Of a stretch of 64,000 nt of DNA, positions 822-55,000 are shown piece after piece. The stretch is from Heptranchias perlo (lineage: Eukaryota): contig NC_090330.1 in the NCBI RefSeq assembly GCF_035084215.1, positions 96,906,001 through 96,970,000 of the forward strand. Reading direction: 5' to 3'. Each line of letters begins with the position of its first letter. Within the stretch, counting starts at the first letter, position 1. The translations under genes and the position numbers were made by a program. Under the pieces are notes generated by a model. That model made no database searches, was not told where the DNA came from, and saw only the letters and a program-made list of their open reading frames with translations.

Positions 822-1759
822 AAGATAATACTCAACAGCATTATTTACAAGGTGGATGGTCCAAGGATGTATGCCACAAAGTCTGACAACCTTTTCCACA
901 TTAATGCTAATCCAAGCCAAGCCCACACACAACCTCATTGTTTTCATGTTGCTTGCCATGTATACCCATATTCCAAATATTCAAGCTGGAACTTACAATT
1001 GAACTAGACTGACATCTTAAACAGGCTGAATGCATAAAATCATCATAACACCACCAAGCTGCATAATGCATGGTTACTTACTAACACTCAGGATGAGCTA
1101 CAAATTGCGCCAATATCTAGAAACTTGTATGTGTTCCTTCAATTTATAACGTGGCAGAACTACTTTTCTGCTTGTACAAAAAGATTGAGCATGAGCCCTG
1201 AAAGTACAAGGCACCTCTCACAGCGCAGATACTCTCTTGATGGAAGCACAAATTGGAGAAGTGGGCATCGAGGTCAGCACAATTGGCTGGAAAATTGAAT
1301 CAATCATTTTAATGCCAGCCAGAAAATACGCCTATAATGTCATCAGGACAAAAATGCCATATGGTTGTTCTGGGTCTCTTCCCTCCCAAACACAAAGTTT
1401 GCCAAACATTCTTTTGATGAAGACAATTTACTATTAAATATTATAAGCCAGATATTACTGGTGTGATAGTAGCAAATGAACATTTATTTTAATAGGATCA
1501 ATGTCACAATTAAAATAATGGGCATAGGAATGCAATAATTTCTATTCTTATATAAAAAGCTGTTTAGGAATGTGGTAACCCATTGTACCATCTACTGTAC
1601 AATTCCTAATGACTTTTTTTATGGTTCGCAAATTCTCATAAACAAGTATACCCAATATCAAAAACAATGAGTTGGGATAATATCAATTTGCAATAAAATA
1701 TTTACCAGAATCCAAACACTGGCTGGATATGCAATTTGTTGTTTAGCAAGTAGAATACA

Positions 1760-1960
1760 AAGGCTACCTTCATTTCCACAGATGACAACAATTTTGTGAA
1801 TCCATGGCTCAATCTTCCAACATGTGCCTTAGGCCTTTTAAGGCATTAGTGATGGGCTATCTTATCTCCAGCCACTCACTTCAAACTATCCAGAGATATT
1901 TGACAGTTTTTTTCTATTCTTTGTAATGCATTGTATGTGGGGGCTTTGACAACCATAATC
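1760..1960 (-). pseudogene. Highly decayed HARBI1-like transposase fragment
   Basis: Reverse strand gagtggctggagataagatagccc resembles the WLLGDKGYP motif; convergent with the Myb relic at 300-620. Confidence 0.3.
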
Positions 1961-2757
1961 CCCTATCTAGTTGAGAAATGTTCTCAATTAAACTATCAGG
2001 TTCATGCACCCTAAAAACATGTTTTTTTTATAAAGATGCTCTATCAGGCATTTTCTTTGAATTAGAAAGTATGGATAATGCCAGGGCAATTAGCAATAGT
2101 CAAATAGGTTATTTCCAGGTTTTAAACAGCTTAGCATGATTGATATCAGCTTACATTCAATTGAATGTTTTAAACCTTGTGATCTCACAGTGATAACCCA
2201 AAAATAGAAATAGCTGGTACTGCTCTTGATTTGCCACCCGCATAATGTTAATAGATGCAAAAAGTGCATTAATTAGGTCAAATTTGGGTCTTGAGTAAAT
2301 TTAATTAGCCAAATTTAGGTAATTTTGGAATTTCTCATCACTAGTGGATTATAACGTATCTGTGACCTTTTTATCAAGTGTATGTGCCCCTTTGTCTCAC
2401 ATATTTTCTGCTGAGCATCCTACTTAATTATTCATATGGTTAGGGTCTCCGACATGTCAATAGGTTTGGAATTTACTTTAATCCTCACTTGAAAAATTAG
2501 CTGAAGTACCAAAATGAATGATCCGTGATGCTGAATAAAGTGTTTGTGTGGGTGGCACTGAGTTCAAACACAGCTTGTTATTAGAATTTCAGTTACCTCT
2601 ACGTGGGTTGTGCAACACATTTCTCCCTACTGCACATTGTTTAGTCCCTTAGAGGCAGGGAAGACAGACTTGAAAAATGTTCTGGCCTTTGACTTACATT
2701 TCAAATCGCTTTTTCCTGGCAGCTTCAAATTAGACTTATTCTAGGCAAGAGCAGCAG

Positions 2758-2892
2758 AGGGGTAATTTTCCAACGCTGTACTGCTGGTGGGAACATGATT
2801 TTCCGACCATTGAAATTAATGGTTGGAAAATCATTTGCAATATGTGCTAACAGCAGGTGAGGCTGGCAGTGCAAAGTCAGAAAATTATCTCT
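2758..2892. mobile_element. Small MITE-like element
   Basis: Imperfect TIRs aggggtaattttc / gaaaattatctct, like other short TIR elements in the window. Confidence 0.45.
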
Positions 2893-4049
2893 TTAGATGC
2901 TTTAAGTAAAAAGACACAGCCAATCATGGCAGCTCGGTTTTATAACCTTTAATTATCTATTGATATGTAACTAAGTCAGGCCCTTGCTGAACCTGTCCTG
3001 TGGGAAAATAAATCCCTCTGATAACTCTGATGAACTCCTTCTATTAAGCAGGAACATTCCAGAACTGAAGGCAAATGTTTGCTTTAGAATAAAGAATAAG
3101 AGACACAAAATAAAACATAGCAAGTGTTGGAATAGGTTGGTCATTATACATAAAATATAACCCTACAAGCTTATTGCAACTAGGGTCAAAGCTTCAATTC
3201 TTGTTATCGATGTACTATCAGCAAAAAAATCTGCAAATTGTACTTTTGGAGATTTTAACCAAATGCCTATTGCATATAGGTATTTTTATCATCTCAGCTG
3301 CATTTGATGAATAGCCTGTATAAAAGATAGTTATCTGCATTTACATATGCAATCATGGCCCTAATAATTTGACTGTTCAAGGCCACAGCTATTCCATGGT
3401 TTGAAGATATCTCCTGGTGCAGTAAGCCAGTGGCAAGGATAGAATAGTGAATTGTCATCACAATTAATAATAATCTGTGTTATTATGGTGATGGCAATGA
3501 ATGTTCTAATTACTCCAAAGTGCATGCTTCAATAAACGTAATGTGAATTCCTACACGATAAAACAGGAATTTGTTTTCTGGTAGTAATTAAGCTTTGAAC
3601 CATAACAAAAGTTACAAAACTTTTTTCTTCACCACCAATTCTCTCCTGTAAACTGTAAGAAAAGTTTCCTTGTCTGCATTTTGTTCTGAAATGTGACTTC
3701 AAAGAATAAAATTATCAATTAATATTTAGAAGCAATTGTCAAGCTAGAACAAAATTTTAATATCCACCACACATTAATCTTTTATAGTATACAGAAGCTA
3801 TGAAATTCCTTTGACTCATTCAGTTGAATAAATTCCACTGCTCATCAAATTACAAAAAAAAATGGGAATCTGCTTCTGTCATTGCTGCCAAGACATCCCA
3901 GTTAACAAAATAAAAGAAAATCATAAATGGTAAACAATGTACATGTTGATGTTAAAAATTAATTGACTTTTGCTCTTTATAATTATGGGATTGTCTCAAT
4001 GCTTCCATGTGCTACTGCCTGTTAACAACAAGTATATTTCTAAAATGCA

Positions 4050-4874: not shown

Positions 4875-5136
4875 ACTAAATTATGAAGTATGGAAGCCCA
4901 CATTTATGGAACTGGATCAGAAATCCAGAAGGCATGAGTTCAAATCCCATTATGGCAAGTTACTAAATTTAATTTAATAAACCTGGTAATTTATGGCTAG
5001 CACCAAGAAATGACAAAAAAAGCAGCCAGATTGTTGTAAAAACCCAACTGGCTCACCAATGTCCTTCAGGGAAGGAAACCTATCACTCCTACCTGGTCTG
5101 GCATTACAAGTGACTCCACTCCCACACTATGTTGTT
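4875..5136 (+). mobile_element. tRNA-derived SINE, 5' part (split by LINE insertion)
   Basis: B-box gagttcaaatccc near 4936; core aaacccaactggctcaccaatgtccttcagggaaggaaac...gtgactcc; continues at 8312. Confidence 0.75.
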
Positions 5137-8100
5137 TTCTTTTATTCATTCATGAGATGTGGGCATCGCTGGCAAGGCCAGCATTTATTGCCCATCCTTA
5201 ATTGCCCTTGAGAAGGTGGTGGTGAGCAGCCTTCTTGAACCGCTGTAGTCCGTGTAGTGAAGGTTCTCCCACAGTGCTGTTAGGTAGGGAGTTCCAGGAT
5301 TTTGACCCAGCGACGATGAAGGAACGGCAATATATTTCCATGTCAGGACGGTGTGTGACTATCATTTTTATAACTGTCTAAATGCTTGCTATTTATATTG
5401 CTTGTGCAGGTTGTATGTGCTCCCATCTGCCTGCTGTCCTTGTCCCTCTAGGTGGTAGAGGTCGCAGGTTTAGGAGATGCTGGCGAAGAAGCCTTGGCGA
5501 GTTGCTGCAGTGGATCTTGTAGATGGTACACACTGTAGCCATGGTGCGCCAGTGGTGGAGGGAGTGAATGTTTAAGTTGGTAGATGGATTGCCAATCAAA
5601 TGGGCTGTTTTGTCCTGGATGGTGTCGAGCTTCTTGAGTGTTGTTGGAGCTGCACTCATCCAGGCAAGCGGAGAGTATTCCATTACACTCCTGACTTGTG
5701 CCTTGTAGATGGTGGAAAGGCTTTGGGGAGTCAGGAGGTGAGTCACTCGCCGCAGAATACCCAGCCTCTGACCTGCTCTTGTAGCCACAGTATTTACGTG
5801 GCTGGTCCAGTTAAGTTTCTGGTCAATGGTGACCCCCCAGAATTTACTTTCCACTTATCAGCCCAAGCCTGAATGTTGTCCAGGTCTTACTGCATGTGGG
5901 CATGGACTGCTTCATTATCTGAAGGGTTGCAAATAAAACTGAACACTGTGCAATCATCAGCAAACATCCCCACTTCTGTCTTATGATGGAAGGAAGGCCA
6001 TTAATGAAGGTGGTTAGGCCTAGGACACTGCCCTGAGGAACTCCTACAGAGATGTTCTGGGACTGAGATGATTGACCTCCAACAACCACTACCGTTTTCC
6101 TTTGTTCTAGGTATGACTCCAGCCATTGGAGAGTTTTCCCCGTGATTCCCATTGACTTCAATTTTTCTAGGGCTGGTGCCACACTCGGCCAAATGCTGCC
6201 TCGATGTCAAGGGCAGTTACTCTCACCTCACCTCTGGAATTCAGCTCTTTTGTCCATGTTTGGACCAAGGCGGTAATGAGGTCTGGAGCCGAGCAGTCCT
6301 GGCGGAACCCAAACTGAGCATCGGTGAGCAGGTTATTGGTGAGTAAGTGCCGCTTGATAGCACTGTCGATGACACCCTCCAACACTTTGCTGATGATTGA
6401 AGTAGGCTGATTGGTTGGTAATTGGTTGGATTGGATTTGTCCTGCTTTTTGTGGACAGGGCATGCCTGAGCAATTTTCCACTTTGTCGGGTAGATGCCAG
6501 TGTTGTAGCTGTACTGGAACAGCTTGGCTAGAGGCACGGCTAATTCTGGAGCACAAGCCTTCAGCACTACAGCCGGGATGTTGTCGGGGCCCATTGCCTT
6601 TGCAGTATCCAGTGCACTCAGCCATTTCTTGATATCAAGTGGAGTGAATCGAATTGGCTGAAGACTGGCTTCTGTGATGGTGGGAATCTCGGGAGGAGGT
6701 CGAGATGGATCATCCACTCGACACTTCCGGCTGAAGATGTTTGCAAATGCTTCAGACTTGTCTTTTGCACTCATGTGCTGAGCTCTGCCATCATTGAGCA
6801 TGGGAATGTTCACGGAACCTCCTCCTCCCATTTGTTTTTAATTGTCTACCACCATTCATGACTGGATGTGGCAGGACTGCAGAGCTTTGATCTGGTCCTT
6901 GGTTGTGGGATTGCTTTGCTCTGTTTGTAGCTTGCTGCTTCCGCTGTTTAGCATGCATGTAGACGTGTGTTGTAGCTTCACCAGGTTGGCATCTCATTTT
7001 TAGATACACCTGGTGCTGCTCCTGGCATGCTCTTCTACACACCTCATTGAACCAGGGTTGATTCCCTGGCTTGATGGTAATGGTAGAGTCAGGGATATGC
7101 CGGGCCATGAGTTTACAGATTGTGGTGCAATACAATTCTGCTGCTGCTGATGGCCCACCGAGCCTCATGGATCCCAGTTTTGAGCTGCTAGATCTGTTCT
7201 GAATCTAACCCATTTAGCACGGTGGCAGTGCCACACAACATGAAGGACGGTGTCCTAAGTGTGAAGACAGGACTTCGTCTCCGCAAGGAACGTGCGGTGG
7301 TCATTCCTCCCAACACTGTCATCAAATACATGACAGATACATCTGCGAGATTGATGAGGATGAGGTCAAGTTAGTTTTTCCCTCGTGTCGGTTCTCTCAC
7401 CATCTCCTGCAGGTCCAGTTTGGCAGCTATGTCCTTCAGGCCGCTGCCAGCTCGGTCAGTAATGATGCTACTGAGATAGTCTTGGTGATGGACATTGACT
7501 TCCCCCACCCAGAGTACATTCTGTGCTCTTGCTACCCTCAGTCCTGCCTCGAAGTGGTGCTCAACATAGAAGAGTACTAATTCATCAGCTGAGGGAGGGT
7601 GGTAGATGGTAACGACCTGGTGCCATGAGACTTCATGGGGTCCAGAGTCAATGTTTAGGACTCCCAGGGCCACTCCCTCCTGACTGTATACCACTGTGCT
7701 GCCACCTCTGGTGGGTCTGTCCTGCCGGTGGGACAGGACATATCCAGGGATGATGATGAATGAGTCTAGGATGTTGGCTGAAATATTCTGTGAGTATGGC
7801 TATGTCAGGCTGTTGCTTGACTAGTCTGTCGGACTTATTTTGGCACAAGTCCCAGTTGTTAGTGAGGGGGATTTGCAGTGTTGACTGGGCATGGTTTGCC
7901 TTTGTCGTGTTCAGTGCCTAGTGGTCCGATGCCGGGTGGTCCGTCCAGTTTTATTCTTATTACGACTTTTGTAGCAGGATTGTACAACTGAGTGGCTTGT
8001 TACGCCATTTCAGAGGGCAACTAAGAACCAACCACATTGCTGTAGGTCTGGAGTCACATATAGACCCAGACCGGGTAAGGACAGCAGGTTTCCTTCCCTA

Positions 8101-12225: not shown

Positions 12226-12631
12226 ATATTTTCAATATGAGAGAGGGATATCAGAGTCATGTATGGTCCGTGCGATTGTATCTGGTCTCTTCAAAAACAA
12301 GAATAATCACGGCAATTACCAAGACTAAGGCCAGCCGGATGAACTGTGATTGGTGGTCACAGGCTCTCTCAGTCACAACATATGCCCTGTAATTTTTGGT
12401 AATCTTAGTTGGGCCTGCAGACATATGATTTAGTCTGCCGCTAAGCTGCAGTCAGTTTCTTGGCACAAGGAGTATATGCTAAGACCCAGGAAACTACATT
12501 CCCAGTTACAACTTACAATAATTTACGAAGAAATGGCAAGGTAACAAGGTTGGTCCTGTGTATCTGATGGGAATGAAGTTGTATAGGTTACAAAGTGCCT
12601 CTGCACCAACAGATCAGCCTTAACATATTGT

Positions 12632-12866
12632 AAACAATTTTACAACACCAAGTTATAGTCCAGCAATTTTATTTTAAATTCACAAGCTTTCGGAGGCTTC
12701 CTCCTTCGTCAGGTGAACGATGTGAAAATGAAATTCTCGAAATGAAATCGCATTTATAATTCAGAAGGAAAGCTTGTGAATTTAAAATAAAATTGCTGGA
12801 CTATAACTCGGTGTTGTAAAATTGTTTACAATTGTCAACCCCAGTCCATCACCGGCATCTCCACAT
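12632..12866. mobile_element. Short inverted Penelope-like insertion (copy 2)
   Basis: Antisense arm 12627-12763, sense arm from 12768 plus tail; TSD cttaacatattgt 12619-12631/12867-12879. Confidence 0.92.
12678..12717 (-). ncRNA. Minimal type I hammerhead ribozyme motif
   Basis: Minus strand ttcac-CTGACGA-a-ggagg-aag-cctcc-GAAA-gc-tt-gtgaa: Watson-Crick stem I (ttcac/gtgaa), stem II, self-complementary AGCU stem III, CUU cleavage triplet. Confidence 0.8.
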
Positions 12867-13355
12867 CTTAACATATTGTGACAGAGGTGACCAGCAGATC
12901 CCTGGTATTTCTTATGTCCATTTTCTATATTGTTGTGTAATAATTATAAGTTATGATCTTTTACCACCAATAAATATGCTTTTTATTTGGAATCTGAGTT
13001 CTTAAGGTAAATGTATTGCACTATAGTTCATTCAGGTATATGAATATTACTAACAGTAACATATAGTATAGAAACATGACTGCTATTGATATCTGATTTC
13101 TTGAGATTATTTATTAATATTTATGGCTTTTTAATTATCAAAATGCGAATCTGCTTTTTGTCTATATTTAGATGAACACAATAATGCTTCAATTATAGAG
13201 GCTGGAACGAATAAACACATTTATTTGATCCAAATACTGTTGTAGCTTTAGAAATGCAGTGATAATTCAACAACTGCCACTAGGTCATGTACAATTGAAT
13301 TTCATGGAACTTAATCTCTGTCTCAGCTGTGTAAATGTTGAAATACTCTTGCAAT

Positions 13356-13436: not shown

Positions 13437-14755
13437 TATTTCAGAGGAAACGTTCTAGTCCTCCATAAATCACAATATTGGTAGTGCACTTATGAAATTT
13501 AAGCAATTTCATGAAACACTTCAGGTGAAATTTTGCTGATAATAAATCATTATTGCTTGGTGTGTAAACAGTTTCATTCACATCAGCTGTTATTGTGATG
13601 GACCACTCTGCTATTAGTTCACAGAGATCTCTATAATAACTTCAGATTTTTATATCTTGTATTAGAAAAGGGTAATTGTTCTCAAATCATTGATGCCTTC
13701 AGTCCTATCATTCAATTTGAATTCCCTGATTTGTCGTCTGGTTTTAAATCTCAGCCTATCTATCCTCAGGAGATAATTGGGAACATTTGCATCAAATATT
13801 ACGATGGGTTCATTTGCATTTATATTGATTAAAATAAATCTTTACATATTTTCATTTAACACAGACATTTTATTTTCCATTCATCCATTCACACAGGGTT
13901 TAACAAATGATTTGTTATTCTGATTAAATACCTTTCCTTGTAGAGAGAGAGTAGAATATTACAGACAAAGAACCAGGACATTTTGGTGGCGAGAACGGCT
14001 ATGGGATCAATAATGATTAAACCACTGCGCTGCCCAATTTCTAAAGTCCCTAAAAAGCCCATGAAAACCCATAATTTTCAGACCATGCACTAATGACTCT
14101 CTTAGAATCCCTTGAATTTCAAGCATAGATAATTGAAATTCATTCTGACTTCACGTGGGAGCCAGTAAATTACCTCCGCTGCGTTATTGCATCATTTACT
14201 GACTTTGAATAGTTTCCAGGATTGTGCGAAAAAAGAGCTGCTTAATGCTTTTTAATATTTGTATCAGTACAAATGAAATGGAATGAAAAAGCCCTGATGA
14301 GATGAAAATAATTTTGTTTTGTAGCCATTCATTTACATCAGTGGGAAGTAGTCTTTGATGACCAATGTCAGTGTGCATTAAAACAGAAACTGTCAACAAT
14401 ACAAAGTCCCTATACAAATAGTACAATAAAACACAATCTCTATAATAGGGGAGCTAAACTTTCCATTTTACCACTCGAGGATGTTGATTGTAGAGCTTTA
14501 TTTTACTATAAGGTAAGCTATTACGCAGATGAAGAAATTATACTGACGCATCAATAACGCTCTCAATCTTTCTCTTTCACCATCACAACAACACAATTTT
14601 AATCACTTCTTCAACCTTTGGTCAACGTTGCTATAAACCTCTACTGCAGTTAATATTTGTTTCAAGAGAAAACACAAGCCTTGAAATTACACTGTGGGAT
14701 AATGTTGTATGAACTCCTAATACTTTGTTCATATTCGTTCCTCTACGATTTTAAT

Positions 14756-15010
14756 TGTAAACAATTTTACAACACCAAGTTAGAGTCCAGCAATTTTATT
14801 TTAAATTCACAAGCTTTCGGAGGCTACCTCCTTCCTCAGGTGAACGATGTGGAAATGAAATCCTCGAAATGAAGTCGCATTTATAATTCACAGAACAATG
14901 CTTGGTGAGTACAGACAGTTTTTTCAACTGCCCGTTGCCAAGGCAATCAGTGTGCAGACAGACAGGTGTTACCTGCCAGGTCTCACAGAATATACACATA
15001 ATCGCCACAT
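14756..15010 (-). mobile_element. Penelope-like insertion (copy 3): long antisense arm plus a few nt of sense tail
   Basis: Antisense 3'UTR 14753-~14998 (caactgcccgttgccaaggcaatc matches 39168-39191), then atcgccacat (tail end is atctccacat); TSD tacgattttaat 14744-14755/15011-15022. Confidence 0.88.
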
Positions 15011-16971: not shown

Positions 16972-18037
16972 TGGCTGGAGTCATACCTAGCACAAAGGAA
17001 GATGGTAGTGTTTGTTGGAGGTCAATCATCTCAGCCCCAGGACATTGCTGCAGGAGTTCCTCAGGGCAGTGTCCTAGGCCCAGCCATCTTCAGCTGCTTC
17101 ATCAATGACCTTCCCTCCATCATAAGGTCAGAAATGGGGATGTTCACTGATGATTGCACAGTGTACAGTTCCATTCGCAACCCCTCAGATAATGAAGCAG
17201 TTCGTGCCCGCATGCAGCAAGACCTGGACAACATCCAGGTTTGGGCTGATAAGTGGCAAGTAACATTTGCGCCAGACAAGTGCCAGGCAATGACCATCTC
17301 CAACAAGAGAGAGTTTAACCACCTCCCCTTGTCATTCAACGGCATTACCATCGCCGAATCCCCCACCATCAACATCCTGGGGGTCACCTTTGACCAGAAA
17401 CTGAACTGGACCAGCCATATAAATACTGTGGCTACAAGAGCAGGTCAGAGGCTGGGTATTCTGTGGCGAGTGACTCACCTCCTGACTCCCCAAAGCCTTT
17501 CCACTATCTACAAGGCACAAGTCAGGAGTGTGATGGAATACTCTCCACTTGTCTGGATGAGTGCTGCTCCAACAACACTCAAGAAGCTCGACATCATCCA
17601 GGACAAAGCAGCCCGCTTGATTGGCACCCGATCCACCACCCTAAACATTCACTCCCTTCACCACTGGTGCACAGTGGCTGCAGTGTGTACCATCCACAGG
17701 ATGCTCTGCAGCAACTTGCCAAGGCTTCTTCGACAGCACCTCCCAAACCTGCGACCTCTACCACCTAAAAGGACAAGGGCAGCAGGCACACAGGAACAAC
17801 ACCACCTGCATGTTCCCCTCCAAGTCACACACCATCCCGACTTGGAAATATATCGCCGTTCCTTCATCGTCGCTGGGTCAAAATCCTGGAACTCCCTTCC
17901 TAACAGCACTGTGGGAGAACCTTCACCACACGGACTGCAGCGGGGGCTCACTACCACCTTCTCAAGGGCAATTAGGGATGGGCAATAAATGCTGGCCTCG
18001 CCAGCGATGCCCACATCCCATGAACGAATAAAAAAAA
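16972..18037 (+). mobile_element. 5'-truncated CR1-group LINE (same family as 5137-8311)
   Basis: ORF 17002-17988 GVPQGSVLGP, MFTDD, LGVTFDQKLNWTSH; tail gggcaataaatgctggcc..gaacgaataaaaaaaa. Confidence 0.92.
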
Positions 18038-18078
18038 TGATTCTCGGTTATGGGCTCTCTCAATGACTTAACAATTTT

Positions 18079-18280
18079 AAACAATTTTACAACACCAAGT
18101 TATAGTCCAGCAATTTTATTTTAAATTCACAAGCTTTCGGAGGCTACCTCCTTCCTCAGGTGAAGGAAGGAGGTAGCCTCCGAAAGCTTGTGAATTTAAA
18201 ATAAAATTGCTGGACTATAACTTGGTGTTGTAAAATTGTTTACAATTGTCAACCCCAGTCCATCACCGGCATCTCCACAT
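18079..18280. mobile_element. Short palindromic Penelope-like insertion (copy 4)
   Basis: Arms 18078-18156/18164-18242, tail to 18280, TSD cttaacaatttt 18067-18078/18281-18292. Confidence 0.93.
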
Positions 18281-19199
18281 CTTAACAATTTTGCACAGTG
18301 AGTGGCTAAGCCACACAAACCAGGAAGGTCAAAGGTTTGATTACCTGATTGCTGACTTAATTGATCTCAGCCTGGGTGCTACAATTGGCTTGGGCCAAGG
18401 AGGCGGAAAACAAACCAGAGTTCCTGCTTTTAATTACTGGTGGAAATGTGGATGTTGGATTAGGACAAGATTGGGCTTGGCTTCAATGCCTCTAATGGTT
18501 TGATACCCTACTGAAATTCACTGTCAATGAATAAACGGCATTTAGGCAAGGTACTGGCGGGTGACTGAGGCTCGAGAAATTATGCTGCAACAGGAAATTA
18601 ATGCCTTCTGGAGAAGAGAAGGGAAGAAAACTGACTAGAAGGAAAAATAAAATTATTGCAGCGCCATACATTACTAGTTGTTATGTCATTGCAACTGGAT
18701 ATAAAATAAAATGAGTTAACTATATATATTATCGAGGAGCCTTTTATAATAAAATCCAATTTGTTACAAAAAAGCTTACCATATCAGTAACAGTAGTTTG
18801 CTTTATGAGTGTAACTGTCAGACAGTTTGATATACTGGAGAAAGCAGCTAGTTCATTGCAGGAAATAGTCAGCTCACTTGTTGCTTTCTTAATGCCAATT
18901 CATTGATAGGTTGAAAGACTCCCTAATTTAAAGGGTGTGCTTTTCTTTCTGTGTTGACTTGTGAATCTGACTGTGTCGTTTAAAACAAAGGCAACCTGAG
19001 GTTTGAATTGCATGGCCTTGAAATTCGAGCATGCAGGGAGCAATCCCCGCGCCTCAGTAGATAGACCCGAGGTGCGTGTGATATTCGGACCCTCAGGGTC
19101 AGAGGATCCAAGCACTGATGCAATATTGCTTGCCAACACTGTGTCTGCCATTATTGAGATTTTGGACTCCAATGTATAGGAGGCTTTCACTTCTGTACT

Positions 19200-25425: not shown

Positions 25426-26450
25426 GGGCTCAATTTTCAAACAGAGTGGGGGTCAATTTGAGGTCGGGAAACCCATCAGTACGGGTTTCCCCGACGTCCT
25501 TACGATTTTGACGTAAAGACGCCTTTATTTTTTTTTGTCGGTTTCCCGTCTGACTGACCGGCTGATTGACAGGCTGGTCTCAGTCGGACAGGAGACCAGC
25601 CAGGGGAGAGGACGTCTGCAGGTAAGTCTTTGTTTGCATGGTTGCGGGGGGCATGTATGGGCACAAGGGCATGGGTGGGCAAGGGGCACGGGTGGGCAAG
25701 GGGCACGGGGGTCGCGAGTCATGGAGGATGGGATCGGGGGTCAGTTATGGTGGAGGGCGGAATCATTGAGGGGGTGGGTTGGGGATCAGAGGATCGGGGT
25801 CGGGGTCGGAAGATCGAGATCGGAGTGGGAGGGTCGGGGTCGGAGGATTGGAGTCAGAGGATCGGGGCCAGGGACGGAGGATCGGGGTCGGGGTCAGAGG
25901 ATCAGGGTCGGAGGAACGGGGCCCGGGTCGGACGATCGGGGTCTGGGTTGGAAGGGGAGGATTGGGGTCGGGGGTTGGGGGTCGGTGGGGGAGGATCGGG
26001 GTCAGGGGGTCGGGGTCAGGGATCTGCGATTGGGGGGGGGTGGTGGGCGATTGGGGGGGTGGGGGTGGGGGTCAGTGCAGGTAGGCTTGTTGCGCCTGGG
26101 GGAAGCACTCCTGCTCCTCCGGGCCCACAAGCTGTGCCTTTCTAGGGACTTACGTGCAGTCTCGGGCCTTCTCGCCTCCTTTCATGAAGCGTAAAACAGC
26201 AGACCTGGAATCCTGGCCCCCCAAGGTTGAAATGAGGAATTAGATAAAAATGGAGGCCTGAAGCCTCCTTTAAAGGTTTTAAGGCTCGACCCACCTCCTG
26301 GGAGCGGGTTGGCCGCCTGCCCCTCATCCCGCCCCTCATCCCGCCCCCGTGAAAACCGGAAATGGGCGGGTTGGAGGCAGTTCTGAAATAGTGGAAGTTT
26401 TCAATGCCCCCCAGCCCCCAACACCAATTTTTTACTTTAAAATCAAGCCC
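25426..26450. mobile_element. Non-autonomous Harbinger-type element
   Basis: TIRs gggctcaatttt / aaaatcaagccc, 3-bp TSD atg/atg, GC-rich subtermini. Confidence 0.75.
25730..26075 (+). repeat. G-rich minisatellite (gggtcggaggatcgg-like units)
   Basis: Repeated gaggatcggggtc / ggggtcgg units; explains the GC-rich spurious ORFs 25535-26194. Confidence 0.85.
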
Positions 26451-28244: not shown

Positions 28245-29110
28245 AAAAATTCATTCATGGGATGTGGGCGTCGCTGGCAAGGCCAGCATTTATTGCCCAT
28301 CCCTAATTGCCCTTGAGAAGGTGGTGGTGAGCCACCTTCTTAAACCGCTGTAGTCCGTGTGGTGAAGGTTCTCCCACAGTACTGTTAGGTAGAGAGTTCC
28401 AGGATTTTGACTCAGCGACGATGAAGGAACGGCGATATATTTCCAAGTCAGGATGGTGTGTGACTTGGAGGGGAACGTGCAGGTGGTGCCTTGCTGCTGC
28501 CCTTGTCCTTCTAGGTGGTAGAGGTCACGGGTTTTGGAGGTGCTGTCGAAGAAGCCTTGGCGAGTTGTTGCAGTGCATCTTGTAGATGGTACACACTGCA
28601 GCCACGGTGCACCGGTGGTGGAGGGAGTGAATGTTTAAGGTGGTGGATTGGGCGCCAATCAAGTGAGCTGCTTTGTCTTGAATGGTGTCAAGCATCTTGA
28701 GTGTTGTTGGAGCTGCACTCATCCAGGCAAGTGGAGAGTATTCCATCACACTCCTGACTTGTGCCTTGCAGATGGTGGAAAGGCTTTGGGGAGTCAGGAG
28801 GTGAGTCACTCACTGCAGAATACCCAGCCTTTGAACTGCTCTTGAAGCCACAGTATTTATATGGCTGGTCCAGTTAAGTTTCTGGTCAATGGTGACCCCC
28901 AGGATGTTGATGGTGGGGGATTCGGCGATGGTAATGCTGTTGAATGTCAAGGGGAGGTGGTTAGAATATCTCTTATTGGAGATGGTCATTGCCTGGCACT
29001 TGTCCGGAGCGAATGTTTTTTGCCATTTATCAGCCTAAGCCTGGATGTTGTCCAGGTCGTGCTGCATGAAGGCACAGACTGCTTCATTATCTGAGGAATT
29101 GCGAATGGAA
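28245..29110 (-). mobile_element. 5'-truncated CR1-group LINE (same family as 5137-8311)
   Basis: ORF 28525-28809 THLLTPQSLSTI.KAQVRSVMEYSPLAWMSAAP and the same 3' tail. Confidence 0.9.
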
Positions 29111-29676
29111 CAGATATTTAAAGAGTATTTGCTTTTTGTGGGCCCCAGATACTTTCCAAGAGTTGCAAAATATACCAATAGAATATAACATTTTTGACTT
29201 GAAAAAAGGAATTTATTTTTGATTTCAAAACATGGAAACAGTGTAAAGCATAATTTTTAAATTCTTATTGAGCTTTTAATAATAAAAACAATACATATAC
29301 TGGAGCGAAGGGTGGGGGGAAGCACAAGTAATTGGGAGATGAATGGGAGGCAGCAGTAACTGATAGAGAGGGTGTGAATGAAGCCACTGAGGGCCACATT
29401 TTTCCAGCAATGCAGCTTACAGCCATTGGCGGCCCCGTTCCCTCCCTGCCACACCCTGCCATATCACCCACCAGCTCCCACCTGAAAGAACAAATTAAAA
29501 ACTTAAGTTAAAATAAATATTTTACAATTACAAGCTTAAATTTATTAACTGAATTCTTTTTTATATGCTTGGCCATGTTTATTAATGTTTTTGATAGGAG
29601 ACAAGTTTGAATGTCAGAAGCCTATAAGTATAAATTGTTTTTTTTCCCCTGTGTTGCACTTTTTCCCTTTGGCCCA

Positions 29677-30145
29677 GGATGAGAGGATTGTCCTATGAGG
29701 AGAGGTTGAGTAGAATGGGCCTATACTCTCTGGAGTTTAGAAAAATGAGAGGTGATCTCATTGAAACATATAAAATTCTTTGAGGGCTCGACAGGGTAGA
29801 TGCTGAGAGGTTGTTTCCCCTGGCTGGAGAGTCTAGAACAAGGGGGCATAGTCTCAGGATAAAGGGTCAGCCATTTAAGACTGAGATGAGGAGGAATTTC
29901 TTCACTCAAAGGGTTGTGAATCTTTGGAATTCTGTACCCCAGAGGGCTGTGGATACTCAGTCGTTGAGTATATTCAAGGCTGAGATAAATAGATTTTTGG
30001 ACTCTAGGGGGGGTCAAGGGATATGGAGATCAGGATGGAAAGTGGGGTTGAGGTCAAAGATCAGCCATGATATTATTGAATGGCAGAGCAAGCTTGAGGG
30101 GCTGTACGGCCTACTCCTGCTCCTATTTCTTATGTTTTATGTCCT
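29677..30145 (+). mobile_element. CR1 LINE 3' end
   Basis: ESRTRGHSLRIKG..RRNFFTQRVVNLWNS; tail ggcctactcctgctcctatttcttatgt. Confidence 0.9.
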
Positions 30146-30499
30146 ATAGGACTGCATTTTTTTCTATGATTCTTACACTTGAATATTCTTTTTACTTACA
30201 TACTAGTTGATCTCTCCTCAAGTTATAATGATGAGTGAAGATCTGTACAGTGTTGAAGAGTTTTGTCTTGATTTTCCCAAAGGATTTAATGATACTACTA
30301 TCTGAAGCAGTGGACAACAGAAGCTTCCTCTATAACATGGAGATTTTTTAAAAATCGGAATAAGCTGGAATACTTGAATTGGAACAAAATGTGTTATTGA
30401 CTTTGTTTGACACTATAAAATCATAGAAAATAATTTCAAGCAACACAAACCAACATGCCCATTCCACACAACAATAGACTATTGATGAACATGCTAGCA

Positions 30500-31200
30500 C
30501 AGCAAAGCAAGCATCAGTGAATTAATAAATTGATAGAGCATAATCACCATTGAATCCATAATTTCGTAGAGCAGTGAACACCAGCAATTTAATAAATTAC
30601 ACTGCAATGGGTACACTAGTCAATCGATAAATGAATGGATCAACAGGCACCAGTGAATTAATAAATTAATACAGCAGCAGGCACCAGTGAATTAATGGAG
30701 AAGCAGACAAAAGGGAATTATTAAATTCATAGACCAACGAGCACACAATATATTAATAAATAATTGGAGCAGTGGGTATCAATGAATAAATTAATTGTTA
30801 GAGCACCAGCCAGCAGCAAAAACCACATACATGACCACTTGCTCACAACAACAAAAGTTTACTAGTGCACATTTCAGAACAGCTAAGCAACTATCAGTGA
30901 ATCAATAAGGTAATGTAACAGTACTCATCACCAAATGATACAAAAGGCATCAAGGGGTATGGGGAGAGAGCGGGAATATGGTATTTAGATAGAGGATCAG
31001 CCTTGATCATATTGAATGGCGGAGCAGGCTCAAAGGGCCGAATGGCCTACTCCTGCTCCTATTTTCTATGTTTCTATAAATTAATGGAGCAGAAGGCACC
31101 AGTGAATTGATATTGAATTAATAAATTATGGGCAAGCGAGCACCTATGTATTAATAAATCCATACAGCAGTTGGCATATCAAAAAAATCAATAAATTAAT
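30500..31200 (+). repeat. Degenerate AT-rich minisatellite interrupted by a CR1 tail
   Basis: Recurring gcaccagtgaattaataaattaat..gagcag units at about 30512, 30579, 30647, 30681, 31096. Confidence 0.7.
30940..31077 (+). mobile_element. CR1 3' terminal fragment
   Basis: aaaggcatcaaggggtatggggagagagcggg..ggccgaatggcctactcctgctcctattttctatgtttcta. Confidence 0.85.
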
Positions 31201-38950: not shown

Positions 38951-39055
38951 AAGCCACTAACGGAGATTAGAAAAACAGAGATCCAATTATTGCCACGTGA
39001 AGAATTCAACTCCATGCCTACTCATTGTGTTATAGTCCAGCAATTTTATTTTAAA

Positions 39056-39094
39056 TTCACAAGCTTTCGGAGATTTCCTCCTTCCTCAGGCAAA
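39056..39094 (-). ncRNA. Minimal hammerhead ribozyme motif (left arm)
   Basis: Mirror copy of 42658-42696. Confidence 0.75.
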
Positions 39095-39338
39095 TGTTTC
39101 AAGAGCTCCTTGAAGCCTACGCATTTATACATATAGAACAATACATGGTGTTTACAGACTGCCCCTGCAACTGCCCGTTGCCAAGGCAATCACCGTGTTC
39201 AGACAGAGAGGTGTCACCTGCAGAACCCCCGAATACACATTCAACAAAAAAACAAACAGGGAAAAAAAACAGAGAAAAAAAACAGAGAGAGGCAGAAACA
39301 TCCGGAAGGCAGAGAGAGCCAGCAAATGACCCATTATA

Positions 39339-40739
39339 TTAAAAACAGATAACATTTGTTCGCTGGTGGGGTAACGTGTAGCGTGACATGAACCCAAGAT
39401 CCCGGTTGAGGCCGTCCTCATGGGTGCGGAACTTGGCTATCAATTTCTGCTCGACGATTTTGCGTTGTCGTGTGTCTCGAAGGCCGCCTTGGAGTACGCT
39501 TACCCGAAGGTCGGTGGATGAATGTCCATGACTGCTGAAGTGTTCCCCGACTGGGAGGGAACCCTCCTGTTTGGTGATTGTTGCGCGGTGTCCGTTCATC
39601 CGTTGTCGCAGCGTCTGCATGGTCTCGCCAATGTACCATGCTCTGGGGCATCCTTTCCTGCAACGTATGAGGTAGACAACGTTGGCCGAGTCACAGGAGT
39701 ATGAACCATGCACCTGGTGGGTGGTGTCCTCTCGTGTGATGGTGGTATCTGTGTCGATGATCTGGCATGTCTTGCAGAGGTTACCGTGGCAGGGTTGTGT
39801 GGCGTCGTGGACGCTGTTCTCTTGAAAGCTAGGTAGTTTGCTGCGAACGATGGTCTGTTTGAGGTTGGGTGGCTGTTTAAAGGCGAGTAGTGGAGGTGTG
39901 GGGATGGCCATAGCGAGGTGTTTGTCCTCATTGATGACATGTTGAAGGCTGCGGAGAACATGGCGTAGTTTCTCCGCTCCGGGGAAGTACTGGACGACAA
40001 AGGGTACTCTGTTGGTTGCGTCCCGTGTTAGTCTCCTGAGGAGGTCTATGCGATTTTTTGCTGTGGCCCGTCGGAACTGTCGATCGATGAGTCGAGCGTC
40101 ATATCCCGTTCTTACTAGGGCGTCTTTCAGCGTCTGTAGGTGTCCATCGCGTTCCTCCTCGTCTGAGCAGACCCTGTGTATTCGCAGGGCCTGTCCATAG
40201 GGGATGGCCTCTTTGACGTGGTTAGGGTGGAAGCTGGAAAAGTGGAGCATCGTGAGGTTGTCCGTGGGCTTGCGGTAGAGTGAGGTGCTGAGGTGCCCGT
40301 CTTTGATGGAGATTCGTGTGTCCAAGAAAGAAACTGATTCTGAGGAGTAGTCCATGGTGAGCTTGATGGTGGGATGGAACTTGTTGATGTTATCGTGTAG
40401 TCTCTTTAGTGATTCCTTGCCGTGGGTCCATAGAAAGAAAATGTCGTCGATGTATCTGGTGTATAGTGTTGGTTGGAGGTCTTGTGCAGTGAAGAAGTCC
40501 TGCTCGAACTTGTGCATGAAAATGTTGGCGTATTGGGGTGCGAATTTGGTCCCCATGGCTGTTCCGTGTGTTTGGGTAAAGAACTGGTTATCGAAGGTGA
40601 AGACATTGTGATCCAGGATGAAGCGGATGAGTTGTAGGATGGCTTCCGGAGATTGGCTGTTGTTGGTGTTGAGTATTGATGCTGTCGCAGCGATGCCGTC
40701 ATCGTGGGGGATACTGGTGTATAGTGCCGAGACGTCCAT
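39339..40739 (-). CDS. PLE reverse transcriptase + GIY-YIG endonuclease, 5'-truncated (frame open upstream to ~40886)
   Basis: MDVSALYTSIPH, GTAMGTKFAPQYANIFM, YTRYIDDIF, SFLD, Cys linker PCHGNLCKTC, NVVYLIRC..WYIGET..RMNGH..EHF..GLN; no stops. Confidence 0.93.
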   Translation of the reverse strand: MDVSALYTSIPHDDGIAATASILNTNNSQSPEAILQLIRFILDHNVFTFDNQFFTQTHGTAMGTKFAPQYANIFMHKFEQDFFTAQDLQPTLYTRYIDDIFFLWTHGKESLKRLHDNINKFHPTIKLTMDYSSESVSFLDTRISIKDGHLSTSLYRKPTDNLTMLHFSSFHPNHVKEAIPYGQALRIHRVCSDEEERDGHLQTLKDALVRTGYDARLIDRQFRRATAKNRIDLLRRLTRDATNRVPFVVQYFPGAEKLRHVLRSLQHVINEDKHLAMAIPTPPLLAFKQPPNLKQTIVRSKLPSFQENSVHDATQPCHGNLCKTCQIIDTDTTITREDTTHQVHGSYSCDSANVVYLIRCRKGCPRAWYIGETMQTLRQRMNGHRATITKQEGSLPVGEHFSSHGHSSTDLRVSVLQGGLRDTRQRKIVEQKLIAKFRTHEDGLNRDLGFMSRYTLPHQRTNVICF

Positions 40740-41012
40740 CGTGGTGAGAAGTGTTCCTGGTTCAACTGGTCCGTGGGTACTGAGTTTTTGTAGGAAGTCT
40801 GTAGTGTCGCGACAGAAGCTGGGGGTTCCCTGTACGATGGGTTTCAGGATGCCCTCGATGTATCCAGAGAGGTTCTCACACAGGGTTCAGGCATCGAGGG
40901 CATCCTGAAACCCATCGTACAGGGAACCCCCAGCTTCTGTCGCGACACTACAGACTTCCTACAAAAACTCAGTACCCACGGACCAGTTGAACCAGGAACA
41001 CTTCTCACCACG

Positions 41013-42413
41013 ATGGACGTCTCGGCACTATACACCAGTATCCCCCACGATGACGGCATCGCTGCGACAGCATCAATACTCAACACCAACAACAGCCAAT
41101 CTCCGGAAGCCATCCTACAACTCATCCGCTTCATCCTGGATCACAATGTCTTCACCTTCGATAACCAGTTCTTTACCCAAACACACGGAACAGCCATGGG
41201 GACCAAATTCGCACCCCAATACGCCAACATTTTCATGCACAAGTTCGAGCAGGACTTCTTCACTGCACAAGACCTCCAACCAACACTATACACCAGATAC
41301 ATCGACGACATTTTCTTTCTATGGACCCACGGCAAGGAATCACTAAAGAGACTACACGATAACATCAACAAGTTCCATCCCACCATCAAGCTCACCATGG
41401 ACTACTCCTCAGAATCAGTTTCTTTCTTGGACACACGAATCTCCATCAAAGACGGGCACCTCAGCACCTCACTCTACCGCAAGCCCACGGACAACCTCAC
41501 GATGCTCCACTTTTCCAGCTTCCACCCTAACCACGTCAAAGAGGCCATCCCCTATGGACAGGCCCTGCGAATACACAGGGTCTGCTCAGACGAGGAGGAA
41601 CGCGATGGACACCTACAGACGCTGAAAGACGCCCTAGTAAGAACGGGATATGACGCTCGACTCATCGATCGACAGTTCCGACGGGCCACAGCAAAAAATC
41701 GCATAGACCTCCTCAGGAGACTAACACGGGACGCAACCAACAGAGTACCCTTTGTCGTCCAGTACTTCCCCGGAGCGGAGAAACTACGCCATGTTCTCCG
41801 CAGCCTTCAACATGTCATCAATGAGGACAAACACCTCGCTATGGCCATCCCCACACCTCCACTACTCGCCTTTAAACAGCCACCCAACCTCAAACAGACC
41901 ATCGTTCGCAGCAAACTACCTAGCTTTCAAGAGAACAGCGTCCACGACGCCACACAACCCTGCCACGGTAACCTCTGCAAGACATGCCAGATCATCGACA
42001 CAGATACCACCATCACACGAGAGGACACCACCCACCAGGTGCATGGTTCATACTCCTGTGACTCGGCCAACGTTGTCTACCTCATACGTTGCAGGAAAGG
42101 ATGCCCCAGAGCATGGTACATTGGCGAGACCATGCAGACGCTGCGACAACGGATGAATGGACACCGCGCAACAATCACCAAACAGGAGGGTTCCCTCCCA
42201 GTCGGGGAACACTTCAGCAGTCATGGACATTCATCCACCGACCTTCGGGTAAGCGTACTCCAAGGCGGCCTTCGAGACACACGACAACGCAAAATCGTCG
42301 AGCAGAAATTGATAGCCAAGTTCCACACCCATGAGGACGGCCTCAACCGGGATCTTGGGTTCATGTCACGCTACACGTTACCCCACCAGCGAACAAATGT
42401 TATCTGTTTTTAA
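41013..42413 (+). CDS. PLE reverse transcriptase + GIY-YIG endonuclease, 5'-truncated
   Basis: 466 aa, identical to the left copy except R>H (KFRTH/KFHTH). Confidence 0.93.
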   Translation: MDVSALYTSIPHDDGIAATASILNTNNSQSPEAILQLIRFILDHNVFTFDNQFFTQTHGTAMGTKFAPQYANIFMHKFEQDFFTAQDLQPTLYTRYIDDIFFLWTHGKESLKRLHDNINKFHPTIKLTMDYSSESVSFLDTRISIKDGHLSTSLYRKPTDNLTMLHFSSFHPNHVKEAIPYGQALRIHRVCSDEEERDGHLQTLKDALVRTGYDARLIDRQFRRATAKNRIDLLRRLTRDATNRVPFVVQYFPGAEKLRHVLRSLQHVINEDKHLAMAIPTPPLLAFKQPPNLKQTIVRSKLPSFQENSVHDATQPCHGNLCKTCQIIDTDTTITREDTTHQVHGSYSCDSANVVYLIRCRKGCPRAWYIGETMQTLRQRMNGHRATITKQEGSLPVGEHFSSHGHSSTDLRVSVLQGGLRDTRQRKIVEQKLIAKFHTHEDGLNRDLGFMSRYTLPHQRTNVICF

Positions 42414-42657
42414 TATAATGGGTCATTTGCTGGCTCTCTCTGCCTTCCGGATGTTTCTGCCTCTCTCTGTTTTTTTTCTCTGTTTTTTTTCCCTGTTTGT
42501 TTTTTTGTTGAATGTGTATTCGGGGGTTCTGCAGGTGACACCTCTCTGTCTGAACACGGTGATTGCCTTGGCAACGGGCAGTTGCAGGGGCAGTCTGTAA
42601 ACACCATGTATTGTTCTATATGTATAAATGCGTAGGCTTCAAGGAGCTCTTGAAACA

Positions 42658-42696
42658 TTTGCCTGAGGAAGGAGGAAATCTCCGAAAGCTTGTGAA
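42658..42696 (+). ncRNA. Minimal hammerhead ribozyme motif (right arm)
   Basis: tttgc-CTGAGGA-a-ggag-gaaat-ctcc-GAAA-gc-tt-gtgaa; predicted cleavage after 42691. Confidence 0.75.
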
Positions 42697-42822
42697 TTTA
42701 AAATAAAATTGCTGGACTATAACTTGGTGTTGTAAAATTGTTTACAATTGTCAACCCCAGTCCATCACCGGCATCTCCACATCATACTCATTGTGTGGCA
42801 TTGTACCTCGAATGAATATATT

Positions 42823-44989: not shown

Positions 44990-45259
44990 GCAGAATTTTC
45001 CCTTTCTAAATCCATGCTACTTCTAATTATGTTATTGTTATATAGTTATTCCTTGAGCGTAGGTCTTAGAATAATAAAAGCAGAATGTTCTCTTTCTAAA
45101 TCTATGCTGCTTCTAATTATGTTATTGTTATATAGTTACTTCTTGAGCTTACCTCTTAGAATAATGCAAGCGGAATGTTCTCTTACTAAGTCCATGCTGT
45201 TTCTAATTAAATTACCACAGCACAGTAACTCTATGAGGTTGCCTCTTAGGGTAATTTCC
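44990..45259 (+). repeat. 90-bp tandem repeat, 3 units
   Basis: Units start at 44990, 45080, 45170 (gcagaat..tctaaatccatgct.cttctaatta..). Confidence 0.9.
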
Positions 45260-51900: not shown

Positions 51901-52092
51901 TAAGGAGTCTTACAACATCAGGTTATAGTCCAACAGCTTTATTTAAAATCACAAGCTTTCGGAGGCTACCTCCTTCGTCAGGTGAGGAGGTAGCCTCCGA
52001 AAGCTTGTGATTTTAAATAAAGCTGTCGGACCATAACCTGGTGTTGTAAGACTCCTTACATTTGTCCACCCCAGTCCATCACCGGCATCTCC
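51901..52092. mobile_element. Short palindromic Penelope-like insertion (copy 5)
   Basis: Arms 51900-51974/51985-52059, tail, TSD acttcaatcaagag 51887-51900/52093-52106. Confidence 0.92.
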
Positions 52093-55000
52093 ACTTCAAT
52101 CAAGAGGACATAGAAAGGATAGGGAACAGGAAGGCAATGAATGTAATACAGGAAAGAAAGTGTATGATGGTGCTTGGAGGAGGATAAATTCATCTTTAAT
52201 TCATAGCCTAATTTACGTGCTAAAGTGATAAGGAAGGAAAGGAATTGATTAATGATGGATGGATGAAGTGAAGATGAGACATGAATGAAATGATTAACAT
52301 ATCAAGTGATTATTTTATTAATTTATTGCAAGAGCATGGTGCCATGTATGACATGATCATTTAATAATTTCCTTGAGAAGGCACTGATGCATATTGAGAA
52401 ATGACAAAGGAACATAAGTTGTTAGATGCCACTGACGAATAATTTATTTAACACAGATTGTTATGTGGAATAGAAGGATGTATTGGTTTGAAATTCATAC
52501 AATTAATTATAGGAAAATTGAGAGGAGACTGAATTGCTAGGTGAGCTGCAGGTAATATATGACCTGATACAAGGCAACATACTTCTCCTCAATGGTCTTT
52601 GGTTGCACTGTGCCAGATCTTAAATAGCTGAACCACATCAAAGAGGAACCTGAGAGCGATAGGTAAAGAACAAGAAATCATAGCATCGCGAGAGACTGAT
52701 ACAAAGGAGCCATGCAAATCAGGAAAACAAGTCAGGAAAACTAAACCCAAAAAACAAACTAAAATAAAAGGCTTGAGAGGCAGGTTACTCCGTGTGACGA
52801 AGAAACCCAAGAGCAAAAAAATAGGCCCAAATAATCAAAGACGCAGATGAAAATTATCAGGGAAGTGGCCCCCAAGTAAAATGCAGGTAATCACAAAGGT
52901 GAGCCAGCATCAAGTAATAATAAAAAAAGCTCCCAAAAATTCATTACACCTGGATCATGCCTACTGGTGCCCTCCAGTGGTGACCCTGCTTGGAATTTGT
53001 AGAAGGGTACCTCATTTTCAAGGGGCAGCGAGAACCCTCGAGATCTCTTGTGCCCATCTGTCCCATGTGGTTGGAAAATCTGGTGGTTGTCCTCTGTCAG
53101 GAGAGGTTTCCTCTCGAAGACCCCATAGAGACCCCTCTCAGCCCCATATAAGGGGGTTGATCCAAATGTATTTTAAAAAATATCAAAACTATTTTTGGGG
53201 GTCCAGGATGCTTCTCTCACATGGACCCTTCTGAAGGCTGGTATGCTTCATCTGTCTTGGTGTACTGGCTGTCAGTGTTACGCTAAGCTAGGGGAGCAGG
53301 AACTCCTGGCATAGGAAATCCCTCTCCTTAGTTCCACCTCCTTTGCATCATTGGCCTTGAATGGGGTGGGCAGAGGTTCTTCCCCTTACAAAGCCAGACG
53401 AGAACTCACAGAGTAACCATGTCTTTGCCTTTTAGTGGTGGGTCCTGCCAAACTTCCACCAGAGCTGTCTGGTGGATCTATAAGGATAATTGGGACCAAT
53501 AATTCCTATATCGTGCCTGACAAATTTGAAATGTCTCAAGGCATTATGTACACAATAAATTACTTATGAAGTGCAGTGACTATTGTTATATAAGCAAACA
53601 TATATGCAGAGTAAATACATGGCCACCTTCTCCAGAGCTTCCTTCTCATGGGGTGTCAGAGGGGAAATATTTGGTGGTCCGCCACCTCTTGTTAGTCTCT
53701 CTCTACTGTTGTAGACTGTCTTCTCTTTAAAACATAATAGAAAAAGTAAGATTGGCATTTGTTTGCTATGGGATGTACTAAAGTCCGAATTGTCAGCAAG
53801 CAGATTGCATAGTGGGGTAATGACAGCCGCATAAATGTATCATTACATATCATCTGATGCTTTTAATGGTGTAACAGATTCGGAGGTGACACCAATTGGT
53901 AACCAATGTCTCATTTATTTAACTGTCAAATCAAACATGTAAAGGTATCAAATATTTAGACAACAAAGGTCAAAACAATATTACCCCGTTTGATCTCTGG
54001 ATAGAGGTCATAATTAAGTTGGCAATGTGGTCGTTTCAAGTTTTCCCGTTAGGTGGCCTTTGCTGATTCCTCTGCCCTGAGCTCAAAAGATGCTGGGTTT
54101 TTATGTCCCCTCAGCAGGAAACTTCCACCATATATGGAACACTTATAAGACCCTTATAGATTAACAAAGTTGTTTTTCAAAGAATTCTAGATGGTCAGCT
54201 TGTTTTAACATTACTCATTTAACCACAAGACCCTTTTCAAGGTAGCATTGTCTAGCTATCTAGCCATGGTCCTGGTCTAATTGCTATCTTTGGATTATTG
54301 TTCCCTTTTTTGGGTCATTGTTCCTCTATAATCACATAGCTGCCTTGTCTAGCAAGGAGGGTGACACGGGTCAGTCACTAGTCAAAGGTTAACAATTTAC
54401 AATTCAGCAAAATAAGCCGCACACTCTGCAAAATACGCAGCTCAGCCTGCAGAGCAGGATGGTTAGTAGCTTTAAGAAAAATATGTCAATTTTTTCCTAT
54501 TTCTAATATTCTTACGGTGGGGTGATTGTATGTAAGGCTGTGAGTGAAGCAAGACTTCCTTGTGAAGGTTAGGAGTGTAAAGTGCATCCAGGCCATTGAT
54601 GATAACAATTCAAACACTTTAACACAATGTGAGGGGAGGTCATCGTGAGTGTTAGACATGCTTAGCACAGTACATTCTTGGAAGGTGTATTTGGCTTCTC
54701 TTATCTTGGCAGACCTAGTAAGGTCATTACATTTTTTTCTGCATTAAGTTGTTATGTCTGGGGTCAAAGGATTGGCACTCACATCCCTGGCTAGGTCCTT
54801 CTATTGATGTTGTACTGCTCTCCTTTGAGGTCTGTGTTGCTTTCATCCAAACAGGTTGTCCCTCTGCTGTCCAGCTTCTAAGAGAAGCATTTCAGCTATG
54901 ATATCAGCAAATCTAGGGGCTCTCAGACCTCCAGCAGACCTGACAGGCATTACTTGCAAGCCAGAGTGGTGAATTGGTTTCTTTCACATTGGCTCTTTTA

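Follow-up and report, generated by a model that had tools for sequence, protein, structure and literature searches.

Head-to-head insertions of a Penelope-like element (PLE) in the genome of Heptranchias perlo follow a strict end rule: among 121 loci, all 63 classifiable inversions out of 68 carry one long and one short 3' end, never two alike. The near-perfect palindrome at positions 39019-42796 of the window (the whole 64,000-nucleotide stretch of contig NC_090330.1 analysed here) consists of two 5'-truncated copies of this shark-type element, head to head, and is a real, ordinary member of an already described architecture. Such insertions probably arise by double priming on one template, namely two target-primed reverse transcriptions, one per cut strand, followed by end joining. 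The family-wide end rule, more than the single locus, carries the value of this analysis: the origin of head-to-head PLE insertion and of the one-sided tail is called unresolved in the papers cited, and the rule connects two-strand, two-start chemistry in vitro with genomic structure in a directly testable way.

Structure of the palindrome

The arms proper, 39029-40860 and 40892-42723, are 1832 nt each with a gap of 31 nt, and they differ at exactly two positions, 42158 (T vs C) and 42325 (A vs G), each a CpG transition, as the earlier note had described (Table 1). Both derived letters are on the right arm, the T being found in 2 of 192 and the A in none of 196 other copies. The right arm bears about 60 nt of 3' tail absent from the left arm, and this tail stops immediately ahead of the position of the next unit's start codon. 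The short end of the left arm at 3021 is atypical, as most short ends fall at 3044-3053, about 25 nt further out. One 12-bp target site duplication (TSD) encloses both arms and their ends differ (long vs short), in agreement with the earlier reading as a single insertion event from two cDNAs. The spacer had been taken for mostly coding sequence of the left arm, which is right for 28 nt; the remaining 3 nt are an insert, because intact copies diverge after 40888. With its flanks, the insert gives a 7-nt match at unit position ~1150, past both arm ends. It may possibly be a templated patch, though the hint is weak because a competing 6-nt source exists at unit position ~1205.

Table 1. Features of the palindrome in window coordinates
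Feature	Position	Strand	Remarks
Left TSD copy, 12 bp	39019..39030	+	last 2 nt also compatible with element end
Left arm, 5'-truncated copy, unit positions 1160-3021	39029..40888	-	short 3' end without tail
Hammerhead-like motif, mirror copy	39055..39095	-	mirror of 42657-42697; read from sequence
Truncated RT + GIY-YIG frame, 515 aa, from residue 387 of 902	39339..40886	-	no start codon; RT front motifs absent
3-nt insert at head-to-head joint	40889..40891	.	
Right arm, 5'-truncated copy, unit positions 1188-3081	40892..42784	+	long 3' tail
Truncated RT + GIY-YIG frame, from residue 396 of 902	40892..42413	+	upstream openness only via joint
CX4CxxC linker zinc-finger motif, residues 753-761	41961..41987	+	motif definition as in available part of PMC8557442
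Hammerhead-like motif in pseudo-LTR	42657..42697	+	core, stem I, stem II, palindromic stem III; compare PMC4209133 (available in part)
Tail unique to right arm	42724..42784	+	inside stem-loop 42700-42786, z -2.58
Right TSD copy, 12 bp	42785..42796	+	

The two open frames reported before do exist, at 39339-40886 (-) and 40794-42413 (+). Their standing as meaningful genes was not upheld: there is no start codon, the RT front with two motifs is missing, and both begin inside the RT. Because the first 386-395 residues are missing from both frames, neither is a working gene. Neither arm has the complete ORF with start codon or the upstream pseudo-LTR of an autonomous copy, and, judged from its reading frames, the palindrome product is a dead copy, one of many, and not autonomous.

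The element family

The family unit is 3081 bp long and encodes a protein of 902 aa with RT followed by GIY-YIG in a single ORF. Against Pfam, this frame matches RVT_1 (E=3e-10) and GIY-YIG (E=5e-4; 20.8 bits, below the cut-off of 22.6). The nearest database proteins are from Heptranchias perlo itself (93-94%), Scyliorhinus torazame (80-85%) and Mustelus asterias (80%); these shark proteins are partial and annotated merely as uncharacterized. A sequence search of PDB gave no match. The units are arranged in tandem, forming pseudo-LTRs, in L037, where they are identical, and in other loci. The view of a young family is backed by intact copies, namely 22 complete open frames spread over 18 loci. 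At least two age classes, with ~99% and ~95% identity to the reference unit, were seen among the copies of loci L031-L150, and both follow the long/short rule.

The 3' ends fall at ~3081 (long, adjoining the start codon) or mostly at 3044-3053 (short), about 35 nt upstream, and these clusters correspond to the 30-40-bp tail at one end that marks endonuclease-containing (EN+) PLEs. A linker zinc finger CX2-5CxxC between RT and EN is a feature of the Neptune clade in the available part of PMC8557442. By the definitions given there, the element would carry Neptune-type features, an assignment based on motifs and not on a tree. The Penelope/Poseidon clade is defined by the absence of the linker zinc finger, which is present here. 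The hammerhead-like motif is a candidate one: the core letters and stems I and II are present, while the fold z-score is -0.23 and Rfam gave no match for it, nor for any other part of the whole window.

Reality and age of the insertion

The case made earlier for a real structure holds, with arms that have different biological ends inside one TSD and CpG transitions in one arm only. An assembly fold-back or chimera is very improbable. Perfect palindromes are hard to assemble, and no contig among those listed from four sequencing runs bridges the centre, where a joint of single-copy depth may be pruned if it connects repeat nodes of very high depth; on the other hand, neither the differing ends nor the one-sided CpG transitions suit an artefact. 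Moreover, in older siblings as many as 49 differences in 1515 nt (~3%) have built up between the two arms, so that such palindromes exist and persist, and a read-derived single-copy contig from one run ends exactly at the TSD end, 39030. The contig of another run departs from the window sequence at 39018 and continues for 56 further letters. Judging by these coordinates, there is a hint that the insertion is heterozygous, the contigs forking between filled and empty alleles; the runs may be the source of the assembly.

With about 3300 arm sites free of any non-CpG difference, the age is bounded at ~1.3 million generations at a rate of 7e-10, the value for the epaulette shark in the available part of PMC10587355; since the bound is no tighter than this, 'young' is a relative term. 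No age-related loss of near-symmetric palindromes was seen, although the numbers are small (3/35 young vs 2/27 older).

Frequency of head-to-head copies

A 61-aa protein query of the species' own genome gave 9082 candidates. The 150 that were scored were all 100% identical and lay within the first 127 Mb of one contig (C1); they were grouped as 124 loci, 120 of which were retrieved and, together with the palindrome locus, make up the sample of 121. One arm had to span the query, which favours long arms. The sample comprises 68 clean head-to-head, 46 single-arm and 7 complex loci, the last being excluded. Thus, the palindrome is not exceptional as the earlier note had supposed: 68 of 121 loci are head to head, and the arms overlap by at least 1.5 kb in 29 of the 62 other classifiable pairs. 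Two siblings are both larger and more perfect than it, L145:787-6733 (2962-bp arms, 23-nt spacer) and L119:793-5552 (2380-bp arms, no spacer). Of 400 kb of DNA taken without selection, 1.3% belongs to the family, in 13 clusters, 6 of them inverted. Extrapolation on the assumption that C1 is typical suggests several hundred palindromes with arms >1.5 kb genome-wide. With its many long palindromes in a graded series of ages, the family is suited to studying, in a vertebrate, how stable palindromes are and how large the load of double-stranded RNA is.

Elsewhere in the window, the family has four further, short head-to-head copies (632-820, 12627-12867, 18068-18281 and 51910-52097). Every one of them has the tail on one arm, and a script located a 12-13-bp TSD for three; since their centres are not the same, they arose in separate events. 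A single-arm fragment from an older PLE subfamily lies at 14753-14976 (-). Among the read-derived contigs, short-palindrome joints occur at 39092/42653 and 39099/42655; as their depth is far above single copy, some mini-palindromes have a common centre, through either recurrent joining or copying of a mini-element as a unit.

With regard to the rest of the window, no host exons were identified in the nine other long frames scanned, which gave one Pfam match (RVT_1, E=4.5e-16). This match belongs to pieces of another RT-bearing repeat, present in both orientations (16972-17988, 5136-6125 and 28249-29114), which is probably a LINE. A G-rich 14/20-nt satellite (25763-26055), a 90-nt tandem repeat (44990-45259) and a degenerate AT-rich repeat (30014-31112) were also seen.

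One long and one short end

Five of the 68 inversions have a truncated end and, like the 7 complex loci, were not counted; mixed ends in all the remaining 63 would have a probability of 2^-63 under independent choice at even odds. Small inversions in the flanks, which were not selected by RT, have mixed ends in 14 of 15 cases, while the one exception, whose second end is at 3072, was classed as short/short. All four complete inversions in the 400 kb of unselected DNA are also mixed-ended. The TSD is 12-14 nt long in 53 of 68 inversions. This strict rule goes beyond the tail described as 'often' at one end in the available part of PMC8557442.

Single-arm copies carry a TSD in 27 of 46 cases, and 11 of the 46 have a long end only. 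A short end and a TSD occur together in 22 single-arm copies. In four of these, the left TSD is directly followed by an inverted stub of 8-17 nt from the long start (1 of 5000 under the null), and a fifth case is visible by eye; the other 18 have no stub by score. A stub of the same class of at least 6 nt was found in none of these 22.

Common template and arm stops

Both arms of the palindrome carry a variant found in only 2 of 193 other copies. Four of 53 pairs lacked comparators for the template comparison; in 39 of the 49 comparable pairs, no copy outside the pair is nearer to an arm than the partner arm is, and the remaining 10 pairs have 1-7 nearer copies among the 133-178 compared. The short-end arm extends further in 34 pairs, the long-end arm in 27, and the arms are equal in one (n=62). 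A strict 'chase' model, in which the arm from the short start is always the longer, was ruled out by the 27 opposite cases.

Identical arms and central microhomology would also result if a single cDNA were copied into a hairpin by fold-back or self-priming and then joined to the second target end. Such self-priming was put forward by Arkhipova et al. 2013 (PMC3846280, as far as available), and some centres, like that of L119, are perfect palindromes. However, the copied arm must then be a subset of the other, while here 28 nt are left-only and about 60 nt right-only. The same requirement fails in 34 of 62 siblings, so that fold-back explains at most half of them, and it gives no account of the strict long/short rule or the inverted long-start stubs. 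We regard it as decidedly unlikely; a hybrid of fold-back plus a separately primed tail is a possible variant.

The palindrome arms do stop close together, at unit positions 1160 and 1188, 28 nt apart. Set against a unit of 3081 nt, these stops do not support the earlier idea that both cDNAs ended near the RNA 5' end; a common RNA break or stall is possible behind the near-equal stops at this locus. Across the family, arm ends at most 30 nt apart are in excess (5 of 62 vs 1.4 expected, p=0.006), whereas distances of 60-300 nt are not significantly so (p=0.10-0.14). The 5' ends pile up at unit positions 636-690 and 2955-3043, the second zone spanning the hammerhead and the tail stem-loop; these zones are likely RT stall sites or RNA ends. 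Arms ending at the predicted hammerhead cut (~2990) were rejected as a rule: 18 ends lie above 2900, and no more than 2 of them coincide with 2992-2993. Both arms of L104:5179-8384 end at 2992-2993, at most 3 nt from the predicted cut, as if made from a cleaved RNA.

Joints and proposed mechanism

Arms are joined through microhomology of 1-6 nt or short inserts. Of 38 young joints, 26 are insert-free; several of the inserts in the other 12 are visibly copies of sequence close by. Microhomology of at least 2 nt occurs in 17 of the 26 insert-free joints (one of the 17 poorly anchored) vs 14% by chance (p=4e-9).

Double priming on one template would proceed as follows. The GIY-YIG endonuclease would cut the two strands 12-13 nt apart, leaving the TSD that is observed. 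One strand would then prime at the short start and the other at the long tail start ~35 nt downstream; the long and short ends are observed, and the priming would be in line with the anole element in vitro. Both cDNAs would be copied from a common source, most simply one RNA under two RTs, with synthesis from the short start perhaps leading and that from the long start coming behind by strand displacement. They would stop usually independently of each other, the 28-nt closeness in the palindrome perhaps reflecting a shared RNA break or stall. Finally, the two cDNA 3' ends would be joined through microhomology or a templated patch, as the observed joint signature suggests, and then filled in; either theta-like repair by the host or the RT itself would carry this out.

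Against this scheme, top and bottom strands did not differ in the start site used in PMC11167929, albeit for an element of the Poseidon clade. A further difficulty for one RNA comes from 27 of the 62 pairs, in which the arm begun at the long start runs past the other one and full displacement is needed. The common source and the free choice of the longer arm are accounted for as well by two RNAs derived from one source locus (or a single tandem transcript offering two pseudo-LTRs), each serving one subunit of an asymmetric dimer. L037 is an example of a tandem source whose units are identical, and a number of long-end arms end within 3003-3043 of the upstream unit, close to the point where a second RT would begin. 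Two RNAs would, on the other hand, require an extra asymmetry for the mixed ends in 63 of 63, and the excess of near-equal arms suits a shared molecule better. We consider two RNAs unlikely, though the present data do not separate one RNA from two RNAs of one source locus.

Within double priming on one template, we tentatively propose that priming from two sites is built in: a dimer may hold one RNA at two starts ~35 nt apart and copy it from both cut strands. Palindromes would then be the default product and single arms aborted second primings, and hundreds of kb-long, near-perfect palindromes would persist in a vertebrate genome. This double-priming reading of head-to-head PLEs was not found in a search of mainly open-access main texts.

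Comparison with known systems

The head-to-head architecture has already been published, as has a tail that is 'often' one-sided (PMC8557442 and PMC3846280, both available in part). For EN+ PLEs of the Neptune clade, the one-ended tail is ascribed to endonuclease resolution in the part of PMC8557442 available, where it is found 'often', in contrast to 63 of 63 here. The Poseidon element PAc of Anolis carolinensis cuts and extends both strands, is predicted to be a dimer, and starts RT at two stem-loop sites, one on each side of the tail (PMC11167929). Its starts lie 111-118 nt inside the ORF, whereas the long start here is at the ORF start codon; head-to-head or palindromic insertions are not mentioned in the main text of that paper. 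In Adineta vaga, Penelope families similarly have inverted head-to-head pseudo-LTRs, one 31-bp tail, a TSD and palindromic joints, but they are of low copy number and were read as self-priming on an antisense template (PMC3846280, in the portion available). Twin priming of LINE-1 is also alike in its second RT on the other target strand, discrete TSD and joint microhomology (PMC11702581, likewise available in part). According to that source, the second RT of LINE-1 primes beside the end of the first, so the segments barely overlap; in our family a distance of ~35 nt separates the two starts, both at the 3' end, and the overlapping arms form a palindrome.
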